Notes under the pieces: model-generated
The model's database searches: none
What the model was told of the DNA's origin: nothing
Seen by the model: the letters and a program-made list of their open reading frames with translations, nothing else
Shown here: piece by piece, positions 1 through 6,832 of the stretch
How the letters are laid out: each line of letters opens with the position of its first letter
Position numbering within the stretch: the first letter of the stretch is position 1
DNA from: a virus
Lineage: Duplodnaviria > Heunggongvirae > Uroviricota > Caudoviricetes
Virus record (IMG/VR): IMGVR_UViG_2534681988_000034
Length of the DNA stretch: 8,554 bases
Reading direction: 5' to 3' (one strand)
Translations under genes and position numbers: made by a program

Positions 1-1164
1 TTACGCCTTCTTTATATCCTCCATAATTCCAGAGTGGGACATATTTGGGACATTATCACCAAAAATGTCGTCTATTTTCCTCGCATGCTCTGTCAAATGA
101 TTAGGCGCAAGGTGAGCATACCTACGAACCATTTCTATGGACTCCCATCCGCCCATTTCCTGAAGCACTGATAATGGGACGCCTGACTGAATCAGCCAGC
201 TTGCCCAGGTGTGTCTGAGGTCATGGAAACGGAAATCTTCAATTCCTGCACGACGACAAGCTGATAGCCATGATGTCTTGCTGTCGATGCGCATCTTCCT
301 GACCGCAGGCGTTGATGTTCCATCTGCTCGCTTAGCCGCCTTGGTATGTACAAACACCCATTTGTGATGCTTGCCTATTTGATCACGCAACACTTTACAG
401 GCGGTATCGTTCAGCGCCACACCAATGGCGCGGTTTGATTTGCTCTCTTCTGGATTCACCCAGGCAACTCGTCGCTGCATGTCGATTTGTTGCCATTCCA
501 GATTTATGATGTTCGACTTTCTCAGACCAGTTGCCAGCGCAAACTTGACGACAGATTTCAGTGGTTCGGGGCACTCATCAATAAGGCGTTTTGCTTCCTC
601 CTTTTCCAGCCATCTGACTCGCTTGTTTCTGACCGCTGGTATCTTGATGACAGGCGCTTTTTCCAGCCACTTCCAGTCGCGTTCTGCAGCACGGAGAATG
701 GCCTTTATCATGGCAAGATGCTTTGCCTTTGTCTGAGTTGATACTGGCTTTGGTTCATAAACAGGCGGTTCTTTACCTTTCCTGATGGCGGCCTGAACTT
801 TCTGTTTCCATATTTCTTTCGTCTTTCTGTTATGCATTCTGCTTACAGCAGAGTAAATCTTTGCCTCCGAGATATCTTTAAGCCTTATACCCTCAAAATG
901 TTCAAGCCAGAACTCAATCCGGCTTTTATCTGAATCGAGAGATTTTTTATCAGCTTTTTCCTCAAGCCATCTTAGGCAGGCCTCTTCAAAAGTGACATCA
1001 GGTAAATCCCCTAGCTTTTCTACTCGCCAGAGTTCTGCTTTTCGCTTGTCGTGCAACTCCTGAGCTTGCCGCTTGTCCTTTGTGCCAAGAGATTCCTTAA
1101 TTCGTTTCCCGCCCGGGAGCGAATACGAGGCATACCATATTTCATTTCTGCGGAAGAGTGACAT
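1..1164 (-). CDS. int: Phage tyrosine integrase (lambdoid prophage Int)
   Basis: 387-aa ORF, complete in window (stop TAA as rc of 1-3; ATG as rc of 1162-1164 preceded by GAGGAAA). C-terminal tyrosine-recombinase signature (HDLRHTWAS ... VRRYAHL). N-terminus MSLFRR..YAS..LP.GKR matches lambdoid prophage integrases of the DLP12/Rac type from memory. Confidence 0.93.
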
Positions 1165-1391
1165 TTTCTTTCCTCTGTTATGCCATCACCCGCGCTCACC
1201 TGGACAGTATGCAGCGGAGACTGAAGCGCCGCAATGCAGGCTTGCCGTGTTGTGAGGTAAGGAGATTTTGGCTTGGTTGGATCTTTACGTGTTGCCTGTA
1301 GGCGGCCTGTTCGTATCCAGTTGGTGGCGGTTGGTCTGGATATCTTAAGAAACTGACAGGCCTCATCGAGTGTGAGGCTGTATGATTCCAT
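1020..1391 (-). CDS. xis: Excisionase-like DNA-binding protein (Xis/AlpA-type HTH)
   Basis: ORF directly upstream of int on the same strand. Start taken at the internal ATG (rc of 1389-1391) preceded by GAGG. N-terminus [31 protein letters not shown] looks like an excisionase/AlpA helix-turn-helix. The 3' end overlaps int by about 145 nt, which is longer than usual, so the true C-terminus is uncertain. Confidence 0.6.
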
Positions 1392-1641
1392 GGTTACCTC
1401 TGCTTTTTGAACGCATGTCACGTAACTTCTTAATGTGTTCTGCCGTTTCGATCTCTTCTGCTATCCGATCTGCATCAGCTTTATTCACAGGTTCAAAGTC
1501 ATGATTAAAGCGGAACATGCTGGCGATACATGTTCTGCCTTTTCGGATGTAGTGAACTTTGTTGTGGGTAGAACGCAGGATTTTGCAGGGAGTGCCGTGG
1601 TGGTCGACGTACCAGGTGTTAGGAAAAATGATTCTGAACAT
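1363..1641 (-). CDS. Hypothetical small phage protein (92 aa)
   Basis: ORF with ATG (rc of 1639-1641) preceded by GAGGTG at good spacing, in the leftward operon between the TraR-like gene and xis. No family recognised from sequence alone. Confidence 0.5.
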   Translation of the reverse strand: MFRIIFPNTWYVDHHGTPCKILRSTHNKVHYIRKGRTCIASMFRFNHDFEPVNKADADRIAEEIETAEHIKKLRDMRSKSRGNHGIIQPHTR

Positions 1642-1688
1642 TTTTACACCTCAGTTGGACGATGTTGAAATTTGCTGCTTTGAGGCCA

Positions 1689-1907
1689 TCACAGTCCCCA
1701 TTGTTTGTTCTTAAGTTCGATCTCCTCCTGGCAACTTGCACAAGTCCGACAACCCTGAACAGCCAGGCGTCTTCGCTCATCTATCGGATCGCCACACTCA
1801 CAACAATGAGTTGCGGATACAGTCTGGTAGTTCTGACGACGCATTTTTATTGCTGTATTGCGCTGTAATTCTTCGATTTCTGATGCTGAATCAATGATGT
1901 CTGCCAT
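1689..1907 (-). CDS. TraR/DksA-family C4 zinc-finger protein
   Basis: 72-aa ORF with CxxC-(17)-CxxC cysteine pattern (CCECGDPIDERRRLAVQGCRTCASC), as in TraR/DksA C4-type zinc fingers found in conjugative plasmids and lambdoid phages. Confidence 0.65.
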   Translation of the reverse strand: MADIIDSASEIEELQRNTAIKMRRQNYQTVSATHCCECGDPIDERRRLAVQGCRTCASCQEEIELKNKQWGL

Positions 1908-1962
1908 CTTCCATTAATCCCTGAATTGTTGGTTAATACGCTTGAGGATGAATGCGAACAAT

Positions 1963-1983
1963 AAAAAAGGAGCCTGTAGCTCC
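1963..1983 (-). terminator. Putative Rho-independent terminator (minus strand)
   Basis: Inverted repeat GGAGC(1969-1973)/GCTCC(1979-1983) with 5-nt loop. On the minus strand the hairpin is followed by a U6 tract (plus A-run 1963-1968). Lies about 20 nt downstream of the orf61-like stop. Confidence 0.45.
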
Positions 1984-2005
1984 CTGATGATTTTGCTTTT
2001 CATGT

Positions 2006-2221
2006 TCACCGTTCCTTAAAGACGCCGTTTAACATGCCGATCGCCAGGCTTAAATGAGTCGGTGTGAATCCCATCAGCGTTACCGTTTCGCGGTGCTTCT
2101 TTAGTACGCTACGGCAAATGTCATCGACGTTTTTATCCGGAAAATGCTGTCTGGCTTTTTTGATTTCAGAATTAGCCTGACGGGCAATGCTGCGAAGGGC
2201 GTTTTCTTGCTGAGGTGTCAT
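2006..2221 (-). CDS. Small lambda orf61-like protein
   Basis: Minus-strand ORF; preferred start MTPQQENALRSIARQ.. (ATG as rc of 2219-2221, 71 aa). A longer 93-aa form from ATG at 2285-2287 is possible but has no RBS. Position (third small ORF downstream of exo) and recalled sequence match lambda orf61. Confidence 0.55.
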   Translation of the reverse strand: MTPQQENALRSIARQANSEIKKARQHFPDKNVDDICRSVLKKHRETVTLMGFTPTHLSLAIGMLNGVFKER

Positions 2222-2297
2222 TGAACAAGCCCCATGTCGGCAAGCATAAGCACACAGAATATGAAGCCCGCTGCCAGAAAAATGCATTCAGTGGTTG

Positions 2298-2489
2298 TCA
2301 TACCTGGTCTCTCTCATCTGCTTCTGCTTTCGCCACCATCATTTCCAGCTTTTGTGAAAGGGATGTGGCTAACGTATGAAATTCTTCGTCTGTTTCTACT
2401 GGTATTGGCACAAACCTGACTCCAATTTGAGCAAGGCTATGTGCCATCTCAATACTCGTTCTTAACTCAACAGGAGATGCTTTGTGCAT
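2298..2489 (-). CDS. Small lambda orf63-like protein
   Basis: 63-aa ORF with strong RBS GGGAGG 4 nt upstream of ATG (rc of 2487-2489). Sequence [23 protein letters not shown].. matches lambda orf63 from memory. Confidence 0.6.
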   Translation of the reverse strand: MHKASPVELRTSIEMAHSLAQIGVRFVPIPVETDEEFHTLATSLSQKLEMMVAKAEADERDQV

Positions 2490-2650
2490 ACCGCCTCCCG
2501 TTTATTATTTATCTTCTCAGCCAGCCGCTGTGCTTTCAGTGGATTTCTGATAACAGAAAGGCCGGGAAATACCCAGCCTCGCTTTGTAACGGAGTAGACG
2601 AAAGTGATCGCGCCTACCCGGATATTATCGTGAGGATGCGTCATCGCCAT
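2462..2650 (-). CDS. Small lambda orf60a-like protein
   Basis: 62-aa ORF starting 10 nt inside the 3' end of exo (ATG rc of 2648-2650, GGGGAG upstream) and overlapping the orf63-like start by 28 nt. Same arrangement and size as lambda orf60a. Confidence 0.4.
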
Positions 2651-3321
2651 TGCTCCCCAAATACAAAACCAATTTCAGCCAGTGCCTCGTCCATTTTTTC
2701 GATGAACTCCGGCACCATCTCGTCAAAACTCGCCATGTACTTTTCATTCCGCTCAATCACGACATAATGCAGGCCTTCACGCTTCATGCGCGGGTCATAG
2801 TTGGCAAAGTACCAGGCATCTTTTCGCGTCACCCACATGCTGTACTGCACCTGGGCCATGTAAGCCGATTTTATTGCCTCGAAACCACCGAGCCGGAATT
2901 TCATGAAATCCCGGGAGGTAAACGGGCATTTCAGTTCAAGGCCGTTGCCGTCACTGCATAAACCATCGGGAGAGCAGGCGGTGCGCATACTTTCGTCGCG
3001 ATAGATGATCGGGGATTCAGTAATATTCACGCCGGAAGTGAATTCAAACAGGGTTCTGGCGTCGTTCTCGTACTGTTTTCCCCAGGCCAGCGCCTTAGCA
3101 TTAACTTCCGGAGCCACACCGGTGCAAACCTCAGCCAGCAGGGTGTGGAAGTAGGACATTTTCATGTCAGGCCACTTCTTTCCTGAGCGGGGCTTTGCTA
3201 TCACGTTGTGAACTTCTGAAGCGGTGATGACGCCGAGCCGTAATTTGTGCCATGCATCATCCCCCTGTTCGACAGCTCTCACGTCGATCCCGGTACGCTG
3301 CAGGATAATGTCCGGTATCAT
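2641..3321 (-). CDS. exo: Lambda-type 5'-3' exonuclease (Red alpha)
   Basis: 226-aa ORF, near-identical from memory to lambda Exo (…[63 protein letters not shown]…). Start overlaps the bet stop (ATGA-type coupling) as in lambda. Confidence 0.95.
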
Positions 3322-4687: not shown

Positions 4688-4964
4688 AAAAACTCCTGCC
4701 CGTAAGCTGGGCTGCTGAACATATAAAGACTTCTGCGCGTATTCAGGCGGTGGATGGCCGCCGGTTGTCATAACTAAGCCGCCTCGTTGAAGCGACTAAG
4801 GTATGAAATGTTGAGTTGATTTCAGCTGGTCACACCGACGTTCACGCGTCCGTTTCATCCCTCGCACTCCCCGAAGCCTGCTGAAATTCAAGCTGCGGAT
4901 CTAAGCGGTCATCGCAACGGTGAATCAGGTGATTGCCGTATCGTTGTGTTGTTGCGATGAACTC

Positions 4965-4993
4965 ATTTAAAACTATAGTTGTTTTATCGTCAA
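4965..4993 (-). promoter_or_regulatory. Putative early leftward promoter pL (-35 TTGACG, 17-bp spacer, -10 TTAAAT)
   Basis: Minus-strand reading: TTGACG (rc of 4988-4993), 17 nt, TTAAAT (rc of 4965-4970); predicted start near 4957. The block is near-identical to the pR block upstream of cro (TTGACT-AAAAACAACCATAGTT-TTAATC). Confidence 0.5.
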
Positions 4994-5040
4994 CAACAAA
5001 AGTTGTTTTGTTGGTTGTTTTAGATATAACTGGTTGTATT
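4971..5040. promoter_or_regulatory. Putative OL operator cluster (repeated GTTGTT/AACAAC half-sites)
   Basis: Perfect 16-bp palindrome AACAACAAAAGTTGTT (4992-5007), inverted repeat GTTGTT-8-AACAAC (4978-4997), palindrome AACTATAGTT (4971-4980), and further GGTTGTTTT / GGTTGTATT copies (5013-5040). The same half-site TGGTTGTT/AACAACCA occurs in the cI-cro intergenic region. Confidence 0.45.
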
Positions 5041-5130: not shown

Positions 5131-5163
5131 GGCAAAAGAAAACCCGGCACGGTGGCCGGGTTT
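5131..5163 (-). terminator. Putative Rho-independent terminator closing the cI operon
   Basis: 9-bp stem AAACCCGGC(5140-5148)/GCCGGGTTT(5155-5163) with 6-nt loop. On the minus strand the hairpin is followed by UUCUUUUG. Lies about 75 nt downstream of the 147-aa gene stop and upstream of OL/pL. Confidence 0.5.
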
Positions 5164-5237: not shown

Positions 5238-5681
5238 TTAAGCACTAAAGAAAAAGTACATTGATAGCTTATAAAGTCCTGTTCCTGCAGCGATGATTGC
5301 TGGAACACCAAGCAATACCGCAAGCTTTGCGTCTGAAATCTTTCTATCGACAGCATCACTTGATGGCTTGTTTGTTAAGGATTCTTTTATAGAGTCCAGA
5401 CGTGCAAGAATAGTTATCATATTTTTGTCGATAGCTTTAACGTCTGTTTTAAGTTCATCAACGTCTCGTTTGATATGAGCAACATCGGACTCCAGTTTTG
5501 CAACTTTTTCAGGCATGTTATCACTCCCAGACCCACTGCTACCACTTGATTGTAGCATGTCCCATCTTTTTCCAGATATACCTGCTAGCTGGGAAGACGC
5601 ACTGGAGTGCAAACAAAATGATTCTGCCGCCTTTGCAATTTTATCATTTAGGTTTGGAGCTTCGTAATAATCGTGTTTCAT
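5238..5681 (-). CDS. Hypothetical coiled-coil protein with C-terminal transmembrane anchor (147 aa), in the rex-equivalent position
   Basis: Minus-strand ORF 12 nt downstream of the 87-aa gene. Ser/Gly-rich linker (SSGSSGSGS), heptad-like coiled-coil segment (KVAKLESDVAHIKRDVDELKTDVKAIDKNMITILARLDSIKESL), and hydrophobic C-terminus (LAVLLGVPAIIAAGTGLYKL). No SD before the first ATG; an internal ATG (rc of 5514-5516) has GGGAG at 7 nt and would give a 92-aa form. Region is AT-rich by eye. Confidence 0.6.
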   Translation of the reverse strand: MKHDYYEAPNLNDKIAKAAESFCLHSSASSQLAGISGKRWDMLQSSGSSGSGSDNMPEKVAKLESDVAHIKRDVDELKTDVKAIDKNMITILARLDSIKESLTNKPSSDAVDRKISDAKLAVLLGVPAIIAAGTGLYKLSMYFFFSA

Positions 5682-5693
5682 AATTAATTACGA

Positions 5694-5957
5694 TTAGTTT
5701 GTTTTAGCTTTGTCATGCTGGTCGCGAATGAAGTCAGCCAATTTAAGCATCAATTCTTCGGGCATTCTAATGGTTGCAATGTTGTACTTTATGTTCTCAA
5801 CATCGTCACTTTCATCAACAGGCCATTCAGTTACATTATGAAAAAAAGAAATTGAACCTAGGCGCTGAGAGCCGTCACCAAACGAAGAGTAGCCAAACGC
5901 GTCGGCGTATGCATCGACACAGTTATTTGATTTTTTAACAAGTGTTTTATTACTCAT
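5694..5957 (-). CDS. Hypothetical small acidic protein (87 aa), first gene of the module downstream of cI
   Basis: Minus-strand ORF 81 nt downstream of the cI stop. ATG (rc of 5955-5957) preceded by AAAGG at 5 nt. Acidic C-terminal half (WPVDESDDVENIKYNIATIRMPEELMLKLADFIRDQHDKAK). AT-rich codon usage unlike the flanking Red and cI genes. No family recognised. Confidence 0.6.
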   Translation of the reverse strand: MSNKTLVKKSNNCVDAYADAFGYSSFGDGSQRLGSISFFHNVTEWPVDESDDVENIKYNIATIRMPEELMLKLADFIRDQHDKAKTN

Positions 5958-6038: not shown

Positions 6039-6728
6039 TTATCCGTGTTTTCTGTACGTCTGCGGCATGCTCCCAATAACCTTACCGAATATGAATACCC
6101 GGTTCATCTCGTCTTTCTCGATAGGGTCCCACGGTGAGTAGCTCTTGTTATCAGAGATAACCAGCAGTTTATCCTTCATCATTTGCAGGCGCTTTACATG
6201 GGCGGTGTCGTCGTACAGAAATGCATAGATACCATCACCGTCGAAAGATTTAACCGTGATATCAACGAACAGCAGATCACCTGGTTCGATCGTTCCTGAC
6301 ATGCTGTCACCACGCACGTTAATGATGCGGATATTTTCTGCCTTCCTACCATCGAACATGTGACGAGCATCGTCAAACGAGTACTCAACCGAGCGTAGAA
6401 CTTCTACAAACTCACGGTTGATGACTCCCGGCCCAGCACTGACTTCTATATCAAGAACGTCAATCTTGAAGTATTTGGAATGGCTGACAGTTGATTGTAT
6501 TGGTTGCACTGTACTGTCTGACATATTTCCAACGCCAGAAGATAACCATTCTGCGCGCACACCCAAAGCGTTCGCGATCTCCACGATTTTAGTTGTTTGA
6601 TTAGCTTTCCCTGTTTCGATTTTCTGAATAGCAGCCTGGCTAACCCCGACCAAATCCCCAAGCGCCTTTTGTGTAAGGCCTCGCGCTAATCTGGCTTCTT
6701 TAAGTCTTTCTGAGAGTGTTGTTTTCAT
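6039..6728 (-). CDS. cI: CI-type prophage repressor (N-terminal XRE-family HTH + C-terminal S24/LexA-like autopeptidase)
   Basis: Start chosen at MKTTLSERLKEARLARGLTQKALGDLVGVSQAAIQKIETGK (ATG rc of 6726-6728), a typical HTH_3 N-terminus; the 22 codons upstream cover the operator region. C-terminal domain has an Ala-Gly cleavage site (VSAGPG), catalytic Ser in GDSM and Lys in VKRL, as in LexA / lambda cI. Divergent from cro. Confidence 0.85.
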   Translation of the reverse strand: MKTTLSERLKEARLARGLTQKALGDLVGVSQAAIQKIETGKANQTTKIVEIANALGVRAEWLSSGVGNMSDSTVQPIQSTVSHSKYFKIDVLDIEVSAGPGVINREFVEVLRSVEYSFDDARHMFDGRKAENIRIINVRGDSMSGTIEPGDLLFVDITVKSFDGDGIYAFLYDDTAHVKRLQMMKDKLLVISDNKSYSPWDPIEKDEMNRVFIFGKVIGSMPQTYRKHG

Positions 6729-6832
6729 AGTCCAAATGTACAACCAAGGTTTTATTCCATCAAACGAAAATGGTTGTTGACTAAAAACAACCATAGTTTT
6801 AATCTTGATTCAAATTAACCACGGAGGTTGTT
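6729..6832. promoter_or_regulatory. OR operator region with divergent promoters pR (plus, for cro) and PRM (minus, for cI)
   Basis: pR: TTGACT (6777-6782), 17-bp spacer, TAATCT (6800-6805), then GGAGG RBS and cro ATG at 6833. Inverted repeat TGGTTGTT(6771-6778)/AACAACCA(6786-6793) overlaps the pR -35 and spacer. PRM (minus): TTTGAT (rc of 6759-6764), 18 nt, TACATT (rc of 6735-6740), ending 6 nt before the cI ATG, implying a leaderless cI mRNA as in lambda. Confidence 0.55.

Follow-up and report, generated by a model that had tools for sequence, protein, structure and literature searches.

The gene at positions 1689..1907 of the window, a stretch of 8,554 nucleotides of phage DNA (IMG/VR record IMGVR_UViG_2534681988_000034), is an already known one: an ordinary, annotated prophage copy of the gene for lambda Orf73. 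We count it as known because published work on a protein with 86% identity already covers its family, its mechanism and its role in the phage, and because public annotation names this very sequence. The protein very probably works by the lambda Orf73 mechanism. We assign this mechanism because family, orthology, every known functional residue, selection and synteny all agree; the binding to RNA polymerase, the effects on promoters and the timing of expression are taken over by homology, the biochemistry being that of the lambda allele and the window allele being known from its sequence.

Orthology with lambda Orf73

The 72-residue product (MADIIDSASEIEELQRNTAIKMRRQNYQTVSATHCCECGDPIDERRRLAVQGCRTCASCQEEIELKNKQWGL) and lambda Orf73, which has 73 residues, are identical at 61 of 71 positions (86%, E = 4e-46). 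A tblastn search of phage genomes located the protein in 508 records, the lambda match being 85.9% identical. In the lambda record NC_001416 the stretch between ea22 and orf61 is unannotated, yet it holds a 73-aa ORF, and this ORF is Orf73. Residues 1-24 are the same in both proteins, and so is the zinc-finger core (residues 31-61) save V49A; both share the same six cysteines (35, 36, 38, 53, 56 and 59 in the window protein), the DxxDxA motif and ExxRL, a variant present in the window protein and in lambda too. The substitutions lie at positions 25, 27, 29 and 30 (linker), at 49, and at 62, 63, 66, 67, 70 and 72 (C-terminal helix), and the tail reads ...EEIELKNKQWGL in the window and ...EDLELISKQRGSK in lambda. 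In both phages the gene follows orf61 within the exo-xis cassette, and the 150 nt that precede its start, hairpin included, are 97% identical. The surroundings differ in two respects: (i) the downstream neighbour is a DUF4222 gene in the window and ea22/ea8.5 in lambda, and (ii) in the window prophage the integrase, at argU, is of the P22 type and the immunity region is of the Rac type and has no N, whereas lambda has N, cI and rexAB. The coordinates of the features discussed are collected in Table 1.

Table 1. Positions of the orf73-like gene, its motifs and its surroundings in the window, with lambda orf73 for comparison.
Feature	Position	Strand	Description
DUF4222 gene	1363..1641		replaces ea22/ea8.5 downstream of orf73
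orf73-like CDS	1689..1907	(-)	72 aa, ATG to TGA; TraR-family, orthologous to lambda Orf73
C-terminal helix segment, codons 60-72 QEEIELKNKQWGL	1692..1730	(-)	E64 = TraR E66
C4 zinc finger, codons 35-59 CCECGDPIDERRRLAVQGCRTCASC	1731..1805	(-)	C35, C38, C56, C59, plus extra C36 and C53
R46/R47	1767..1772	(-)	correspond to TraR R48/R49
DxxDxA motif, codons 3-8 DIIDSA	1884..1901	(-)	N-terminal helix; D3, D6 and A8 invariant in 8 orthologues
31-codon ORF between orf61 and orf73	1914..2009	(-)	GTG start; an internal ATG would give 29 aa
Hairpin, perfect 8-bp stem and T6 AGGGAGCTACAGGCTCCTTTTTT	1957..1985	(-)	hairpin at 1985..1967; 60 nt before orf73 start
orf61	2006..2287	(-)	exo-xis cassette
orf63 (DUF1382)	2298..2489	(-)	exo-xis cassette
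orf60a (DUF1317)	2462..2650	(-)	exo-xis cassette
Second terminator-like hairpin	2558..2580	(-)	inside orf60a, just after exo; identical to lambda 31265-31287
exo	2641..3321	(-)	exo-xis cassette
pL-like promoter/operator	4967..5008	(-)	TTGACG, 17 nt, TTAAAT; inverted-repeat match to pR/oR at 6762..6802
Strong hairpin terminator	5163..5140	(-)	after the 87- and 147-aa ORFs; preceded by boxA-like CGCTCTTAA
147-aa ORF	5238..5681	(-)	phrog_3556; coiled coil, hydrophobic C-terminus
87-aa ORF	5694..5957	(-)	phrog_4231
Repressor	6039..6728		HTH and S24 peptidase
lambda orf73	NC_001416, 30392-30613	(-)	no CDS in RefSeq record; 'Orf2310' in ribosome profiling

Family assignment and conserved residues

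By its sequence, the window protein belongs to the Pfam DksA/TraR family and to the lambda Orf73 orthologue group. Residues 33-64 matched positions 4-35 of the 36 in the Pfam profile PF01258 (zf-dskA_traR) with 37.3 bits against a gathering score of 24.9 (E = 2.7e-9), and residues 1-70 matched phrog_54, 'DksA-like zinc-finger protein', with E = 3.4e-26. The model TIGR02419 (C4_traR_proteo), which NCBIfam titles 'phage/conjugal plasmid C-4 type zinc finger protein, TraR family', was covered over 64 of its 64 positions with E = 1e-14, and the score of 54.8 bits lies just below the cut-off of 59.7, which is a threshold of the model and not a biological feature. With NF010268, the NCBIfam equivalog of F-plasmid TraR, the score did not reach the cut-off (26.1 bits against 108), and for this reason we do not file the protein as conjugative TraR itself; judged from the profiles, it is a TraR homologue. 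The HMM search that the initial annotation had recommended against the TraR/DksA zinc-finger family was thus positive, and its reading of the CxxC...CxxC pattern as the spacing of the C4 zinc ribbon was correct, C35-x2-C38-x17-C56-x2-C59 being identical in spacing to C37-x2-C40-x17-C58-x2-C61 of F-plasmid TraR. A loss of the acidic tip residues, which it had named as evidence to the contrary, was looked for and is not the case: D3 and D6 are both present, and the DxxDxA motif around them is intact.

Eight orthologues, the most distant with 49% identity, were aligned; the alignment contains 24 invariant columns, among which are all the hallmark residues, the zinc-ligand cysteines C35, C38, C56 and C59 included; none of the 11 differences from lambda Orf73 falls in an invariant column. 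The segment E44-R45-R46-R47-L48 aligns with TraR E46-A47-R48-R49-K50, with R46 and R47 invariant, and in TraR the equivalent residues contact the rim helices (R48) and beta' Si3 (R49) (PMC9239242, PMC8614690). E64, aligned with TraR E66, is likewise invariant in this alignment, and the C-terminal segment around it is the part most variable relative to lambda. Furthermore, a codon comparison with four orthologues gave dN/dS values of 0.15-0.27 for the 1689..1907 frame, two more distant orthologues being saturated at synonymous sites. Purifying selection acts on this frame.

Two residues of the window allele deserve a separate remark. The extra cysteine C53 (codon at 1749..1751) yields the pattern G-C-x-x-C-x-x-C and is kept in the homologues with 49-56% identity from Enterobacter phage CobraSix and Escherichia phage Eeyore, while C36 is not; C53 may be functionally relevant in this small sample, for instance as an alternative zinc ligand. 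A scan of viral contigs returned relatives at 94-100% identity only and is uninformative on the breadth of C53 conservation. The window allele also carries Q25 (codon at 1833..1835), where most orthologues have L25 and the aligned position of TraR is also Q. The exact Q25 allele was present in 6 of 80 IMG/VR loci, together with two further Q25 variants, and it occurs in O26/O103 STEC genomes too.

Function and mechanism

Gopalkrishnan et al. (mBio 2022, PMC9239242) reported that purified lambda Orf73 competes with DksA for RNA polymerase. Like TraR, and without ppGpp, the protein is an inhibitor of rrnB P1 (IC50 ~50 nM), and it inhibits rpsT P2 too; it complements a dksA deletion, and its activity is greatly reduced by the substitutions D3N or D6N (PMC9239242). 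In the same study (PMC9239242), lambda Orf73 expressed from pL or from a plasmid slowed host growth, and loss of orf73 lowered the phage yield 3- to 4-fold after induction with mitomycin C. The lambda lytic promoters tested were unaltered by Orf73, and the three host promoters tested were activated weakly at most, which the authors tentatively tied to the extra cysteines of Orf73, the two that correspond to TraR positions 38 and 55 (PMC9239242). Expression of lambda Orf73 from pL was observed 5-20 min after induction (PMC9239242). In the cryo-EM-based model of TraR, the N-terminal DxxDxA helix reaches the active-site region, the zinc-containing globular domain, with R48 and R49, touches beta' Si3 and the rim helices, and the C-terminal helix lies on beta Si1 (PMC9239242).

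On this precedent, the window protein would be made from the leftward early operon after prophage induction and would bind E. coli RNA polymerase in the secondary channel. There, the N-terminal helix (D3, D6, A8) would extend toward the active site, the zinc-finger domain (C35/C38/C56/C59, R46/R47) would contact beta' Si3 as well as the rim helices, and the C-terminal helix (E64) would rest on beta Si1. Without DNA binding or ppGpp, it would alter open-complex kinetics and thereby inhibit promoters of rRNA and ribosomal-protein genes, and host resources would be diverted to phage production. The idea of a phage-encoded modulator of host RNA polymerase, put forward in the initial annotation, is in this way supported by analogy with the lambda protein, for which polymerase binding, inhibition of rrnB P1 and slowed growth are on record (PMC9239242).

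The same action on RNA polymerase might nevertheless have a main role other than lytic yield, either in lysogeny and host survival or in a block of host replication initiation ('bin'). The phenotypes of lambda orf73 mutants do conflict, being pro-lysogenic in one study set and burst-increasing in another (PMC8614690, PMC9239242). Data from the Wegrzyn laboratory, as summarized in a review (PMC8614690), show reduced survival and lysogenisation upon deletion of orf73 in lambda and Stx phages, and earlier work, in the form in which PMC9239242 cites it, implicated orf73 together with ea22, ea8.5 and orf55 in the inhibition of host replication initiation. Against this, the burst of lambda fell 3- to 4-fold with non-polar point mutations in the gene as well as with its in-frame deletion, and dnaA mRNA was lowered weakly if at all (PMC9239242). 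Besides, ea22 and ea8.5 are missing from the window, and a joint 'bin' function would therefore be incomplete here. We regard such a different main role as rather doubtful, with a modest chance of being right, and favor the contribution to lytic phage production.

Operon and immunity region

The genes upstream of orf73 lie on one strand in the order kil-like, gam, bet, exo, orf60a, orf63 and orf61, according to PHROG and Pfam assignments. This order matches the lambda map, with orf73 upstream of xis and int; here, a P22-type xis and integrase come after the DUF4222 gene. The operon would be transcribed from the pL-like promoter/operator, a function suggested by its sequence and its inverted match to the pR/oR region (26 nt at 73% and 19 nt at 95%). 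Counted from there, orf73 lies ~3.06 kb downstream, past orf61 and in the distal part of the leftward early operon; the initial annotation was right in this placement and in the coordinates of the ORF. In phage ev243, the same exo-xis cassette stands behind an N/rexAB/cI region of the lambda type, and the cassette is therefore a mosaic module.

The intact orf61 of the window encodes 93 aa, as in Stx phages. In reference lambda the orf61 sequence is split into the annotated 61-aa orf61 and an unannotated 60-aa ORF, which agrees with a published remark that lambda Orf61 is truncated.

The immunity region is classed as Rac-type from its gene content, namely because it combines the S24 repressor with YdaS-like and YdaT-like genes, the latter two being rightward genes of the 6039..7672 region at the positions of Cro and CII, respectively. 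Between pL and the kil-like gene (4771) no ORF of the size of N was found, minus-strand ORFs there being at most 36 aa long and the leader ~190 nt. The leader holds a 20-codon arginine-rich ORF, MKRTRERRCDQLKSTQHFIP. It folds modestly better than its shuffled versions (z = -2.2) and is common to only ~20 phage records, all of the same immunity type. No similarity to an HK022 put-like element was detected when 4772..5010 was compared with positions 20000-30000 of HK022, a stretch that may miss HK022 pL/putL.

Directly behind the repressor, and in its orientation, come two ORFs of 87 and 147 aa, in the place that rexA/rexB take in lambda. Phage PhiR34_1, which is 99% identical apart from this, has neither of them, and the pair therefore resembles a moron expressed in the lysogen that may serve exclusion or defence. 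Pfam gave no match for either of them, PADLOC gave no meaningful match for these two ORFs, orf73 or the DUF4222 gene, and Rfam at the gathering threshold gave nothing in the window.

Transcription of orf73

The hairpin that precedes the orf73 start by 60 nt has the appearance of an intrinsic terminator. Lambda has the identical hairpin, as do 76 of the 90 loci fetched, and it forms in the minimum-free-energy fold. It may serve to terminate transcription or to stabilize the RNA, or it may be just coding sequence, and it lies inside the 31-codon ORF between orf61 and orf73. The TAA stop of this ORF precedes the orf73 ATG by 6 nt, and translational coupling is therefore possible. The ORF is annotated in phage SfI as SfI_0032, and it probably corresponds to the 31-aa peptide 'orf2313' that was reported from ribosome profiling for this block of lambda. 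A sigma-70 scan gave no promoter-like site between the hairpin and the orf73 start.

A second terminator-like hairpin, just after exo, is the one we take to be the probable counterpart of lambda tL3, which presumably lies just after exo and which we assume to be carried by the lambda fragment in Red plasmids (~31088-33241). The hairpin next to orf73 (1985..1967) had been considered as tL3 and was dropped, a place just after exo fitting 2580..2558 instead; in the literature examined, tL3 is named only as part of cloning vectors and its coordinates are not given.

Both the route by which transcription reaches orf73 and its expression on induction are presumed here from lambda. The claim in the initial annotation that the protein is expressed on induction holds for lambda Orf73, which is produced from pL (PMC9239242); for the present prophage, which has no N gene, it stands only as carried over by analogy. 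The amount and the timing of expression could differ from those in lambda, because no ORF of the size of N follows pL and because a hairpin with T6 stands upstream.

One might go further and suppose that the gene, though intact, is silent or only weakly expressed, polymerase halting without N at 2580..2558 and at 1985..1967. The lack of any minus-strand ORF above 36 aa between pL and the kil-like gene would fit this, as would the Rac-type immunity (S24 repressor, YdaS, YdaT) and the position of the T6 hairpin 60 nt before the start with no sigma-70-like site in between. However, (i) the dN/dS values of 0.15-0.27 and thousands of intact copies argue for use, (ii) lambda has the same orf73-proximal hairpin and yet orf73 is highly expressed by ribosome profiling (PMC9239242), (iii) excision requires int and xis, and both lie still further downstream in the same orientation, and (iv) the hairpin is inside a small, translated-looking ORF, which may lessen termination. 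A silent gene thus seems improbable to us, and we retain expression from the leftward operon after induction as the reading to be preferred.

We give little credence to the idea that the EEIELKNKQWGL allele has a promoter spectrum of its own, owing to a remodelled C-terminal helix, or is gated independently of N by the hairpin and the small ORF. This helix, which in TraR contacts beta Si1, does carry 6 of the 11 substitutions relative to lambda, and the '...EEIELKNKQWGL' allele is common and always adjoins a DUF4222 gene, not ea22. If it were true, the different spectrum might comprise, for example, activation as well as inhibition.

Relation to other TraR/DksA-type proteins

Among proteins of known structure, F-plasmid TraR (PDB 5W1S, 6N57/6N58, 6PSQ-6PSV) aligns over its full length with one 2-residue gap and shares the DxxDxA motif at 3-8, the CxxC-17-CxxC arrangement, the RR pair, the acidic residue of the C-terminal helix and a length of ~72-73 aa. 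It differs from the window protein in that the latter is phage-borne and encoded outside a tra operon, has two extra cysteines and is distant in sequence; moreover, TraR is an activator, whereas lambda Orf73 activates the host promoters tested weakly if at all. DksA of E. coli (151 aa) belongs to the same Pfam zinc-finger family and also directs an acidic DxxDxA tip toward the active site of RNA polymerase. DksA and the TraR homologues use one binding site on the enzyme, the homologues competing with DksA and complementing a dksA deletion. However, in DksA the tip is at the end of a long coiled coil and full activity depends on ppGpp, whereas proteins of the TraR type have a single N-terminal helix and are independent of ppGpp; the window protein has half the length of DksA and no coiled coil.

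When the single sequence was searched against solved structures, the best match was YbiI of E. coli (PDB 2KGO), with residues 23-67 and E = 7e-6, over the zinc finger only, and TraR was matched over the full length with E = 6.5e-5. With a profile of the eight orthologues, TraR (5W1S, 6N57) came first (E = 3.2e-11, residues 1-70 on 1-72). A single-sequence AlphaFold2 prediction of the window protein had low confidence (pLDDT 57, pTM 0.29) and placed helices at 8-33 and 56-69; for lambda Orf73, a published AlphaFold model has a pLDDT of 93 (PMC8614690).

The first place of YbiI, an uncharacterised protein, in the single-sequence search and the two extra cysteines missing from TraR would be compatible with a zinc-ribbon protein of the TraR/DksA fold that does not act on RNA polymerase and has a YbiI-like role or another partner. 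Yet the similarity to YbiI is confined to the zinc-finger segment and finds no counterpart of the N-terminal DxxDxA helix, whereas that to TraR extends over the full length and ranks top with the profile; all motifs that contact RNA polymerase are present in the window protein, and the 86%-identical lambda protein binds the enzyme (PMC9239242). A protein of this fold that leaves RNA polymerase alone is accordingly a very improbable reading, and we favor a polymerase-binding homologue of TraR.

Reading frame, distribution and annotation

The gene at 1689..1907 is real and is read in the minus-strand frame. That it is a chance ORF, or that the true gene lies on the opposite strand, is barely conceivable: the overlapping plus-strand ORFs 1662..1868 and 1736..1897 (68 and 53 aa, respectively) matched no Pfam family and were rejected, against family matches with E-values down to 3e-26 and a dN/dS well under 1 for the minus-strand frame.

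Of 5426 complete E. coli genomes, 3312 contain the 219-nt gene, and a single genome may have as many as six copies. About 61% of the complete genomes thus carry at least one copy of a reprogrammer of host transcription, which is relevant to the physiology of STEC-type hosts during prophage induction. The region recurs in identical form beside tRNA-Arg, at the argU/DLP12 site, in E. coli E2865 and in other O26/O103 strains, and the E2865 copy of the protein is annotated as WP_000763390.1, 'TraR/DksA family transcriptional regulator'. The reference lambda record (NC_001416) is still without an orf73 annotation despite a purified and characterised protein, and several other phage records, too, leave orf73 unannotated or call it 'hypothetical protein'. 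The TraR-type protein was recognisable from the raw sequence to the author of the initial annotation.

The E2865 region also differs in annotation at a xis-like ORF of the window (1020..1391, minus strand), which encodes 123 aa from an ATG at 1391, overlaps int by 145 nt and covers 116 of the 117 positions of the PHROG excisionase profile: at this ORF, RefSeq has only a 66-nt 'incomplete' HTH pseudogene in E2865. Related loci carry xis-like versions of 116 aa and 123 aa.
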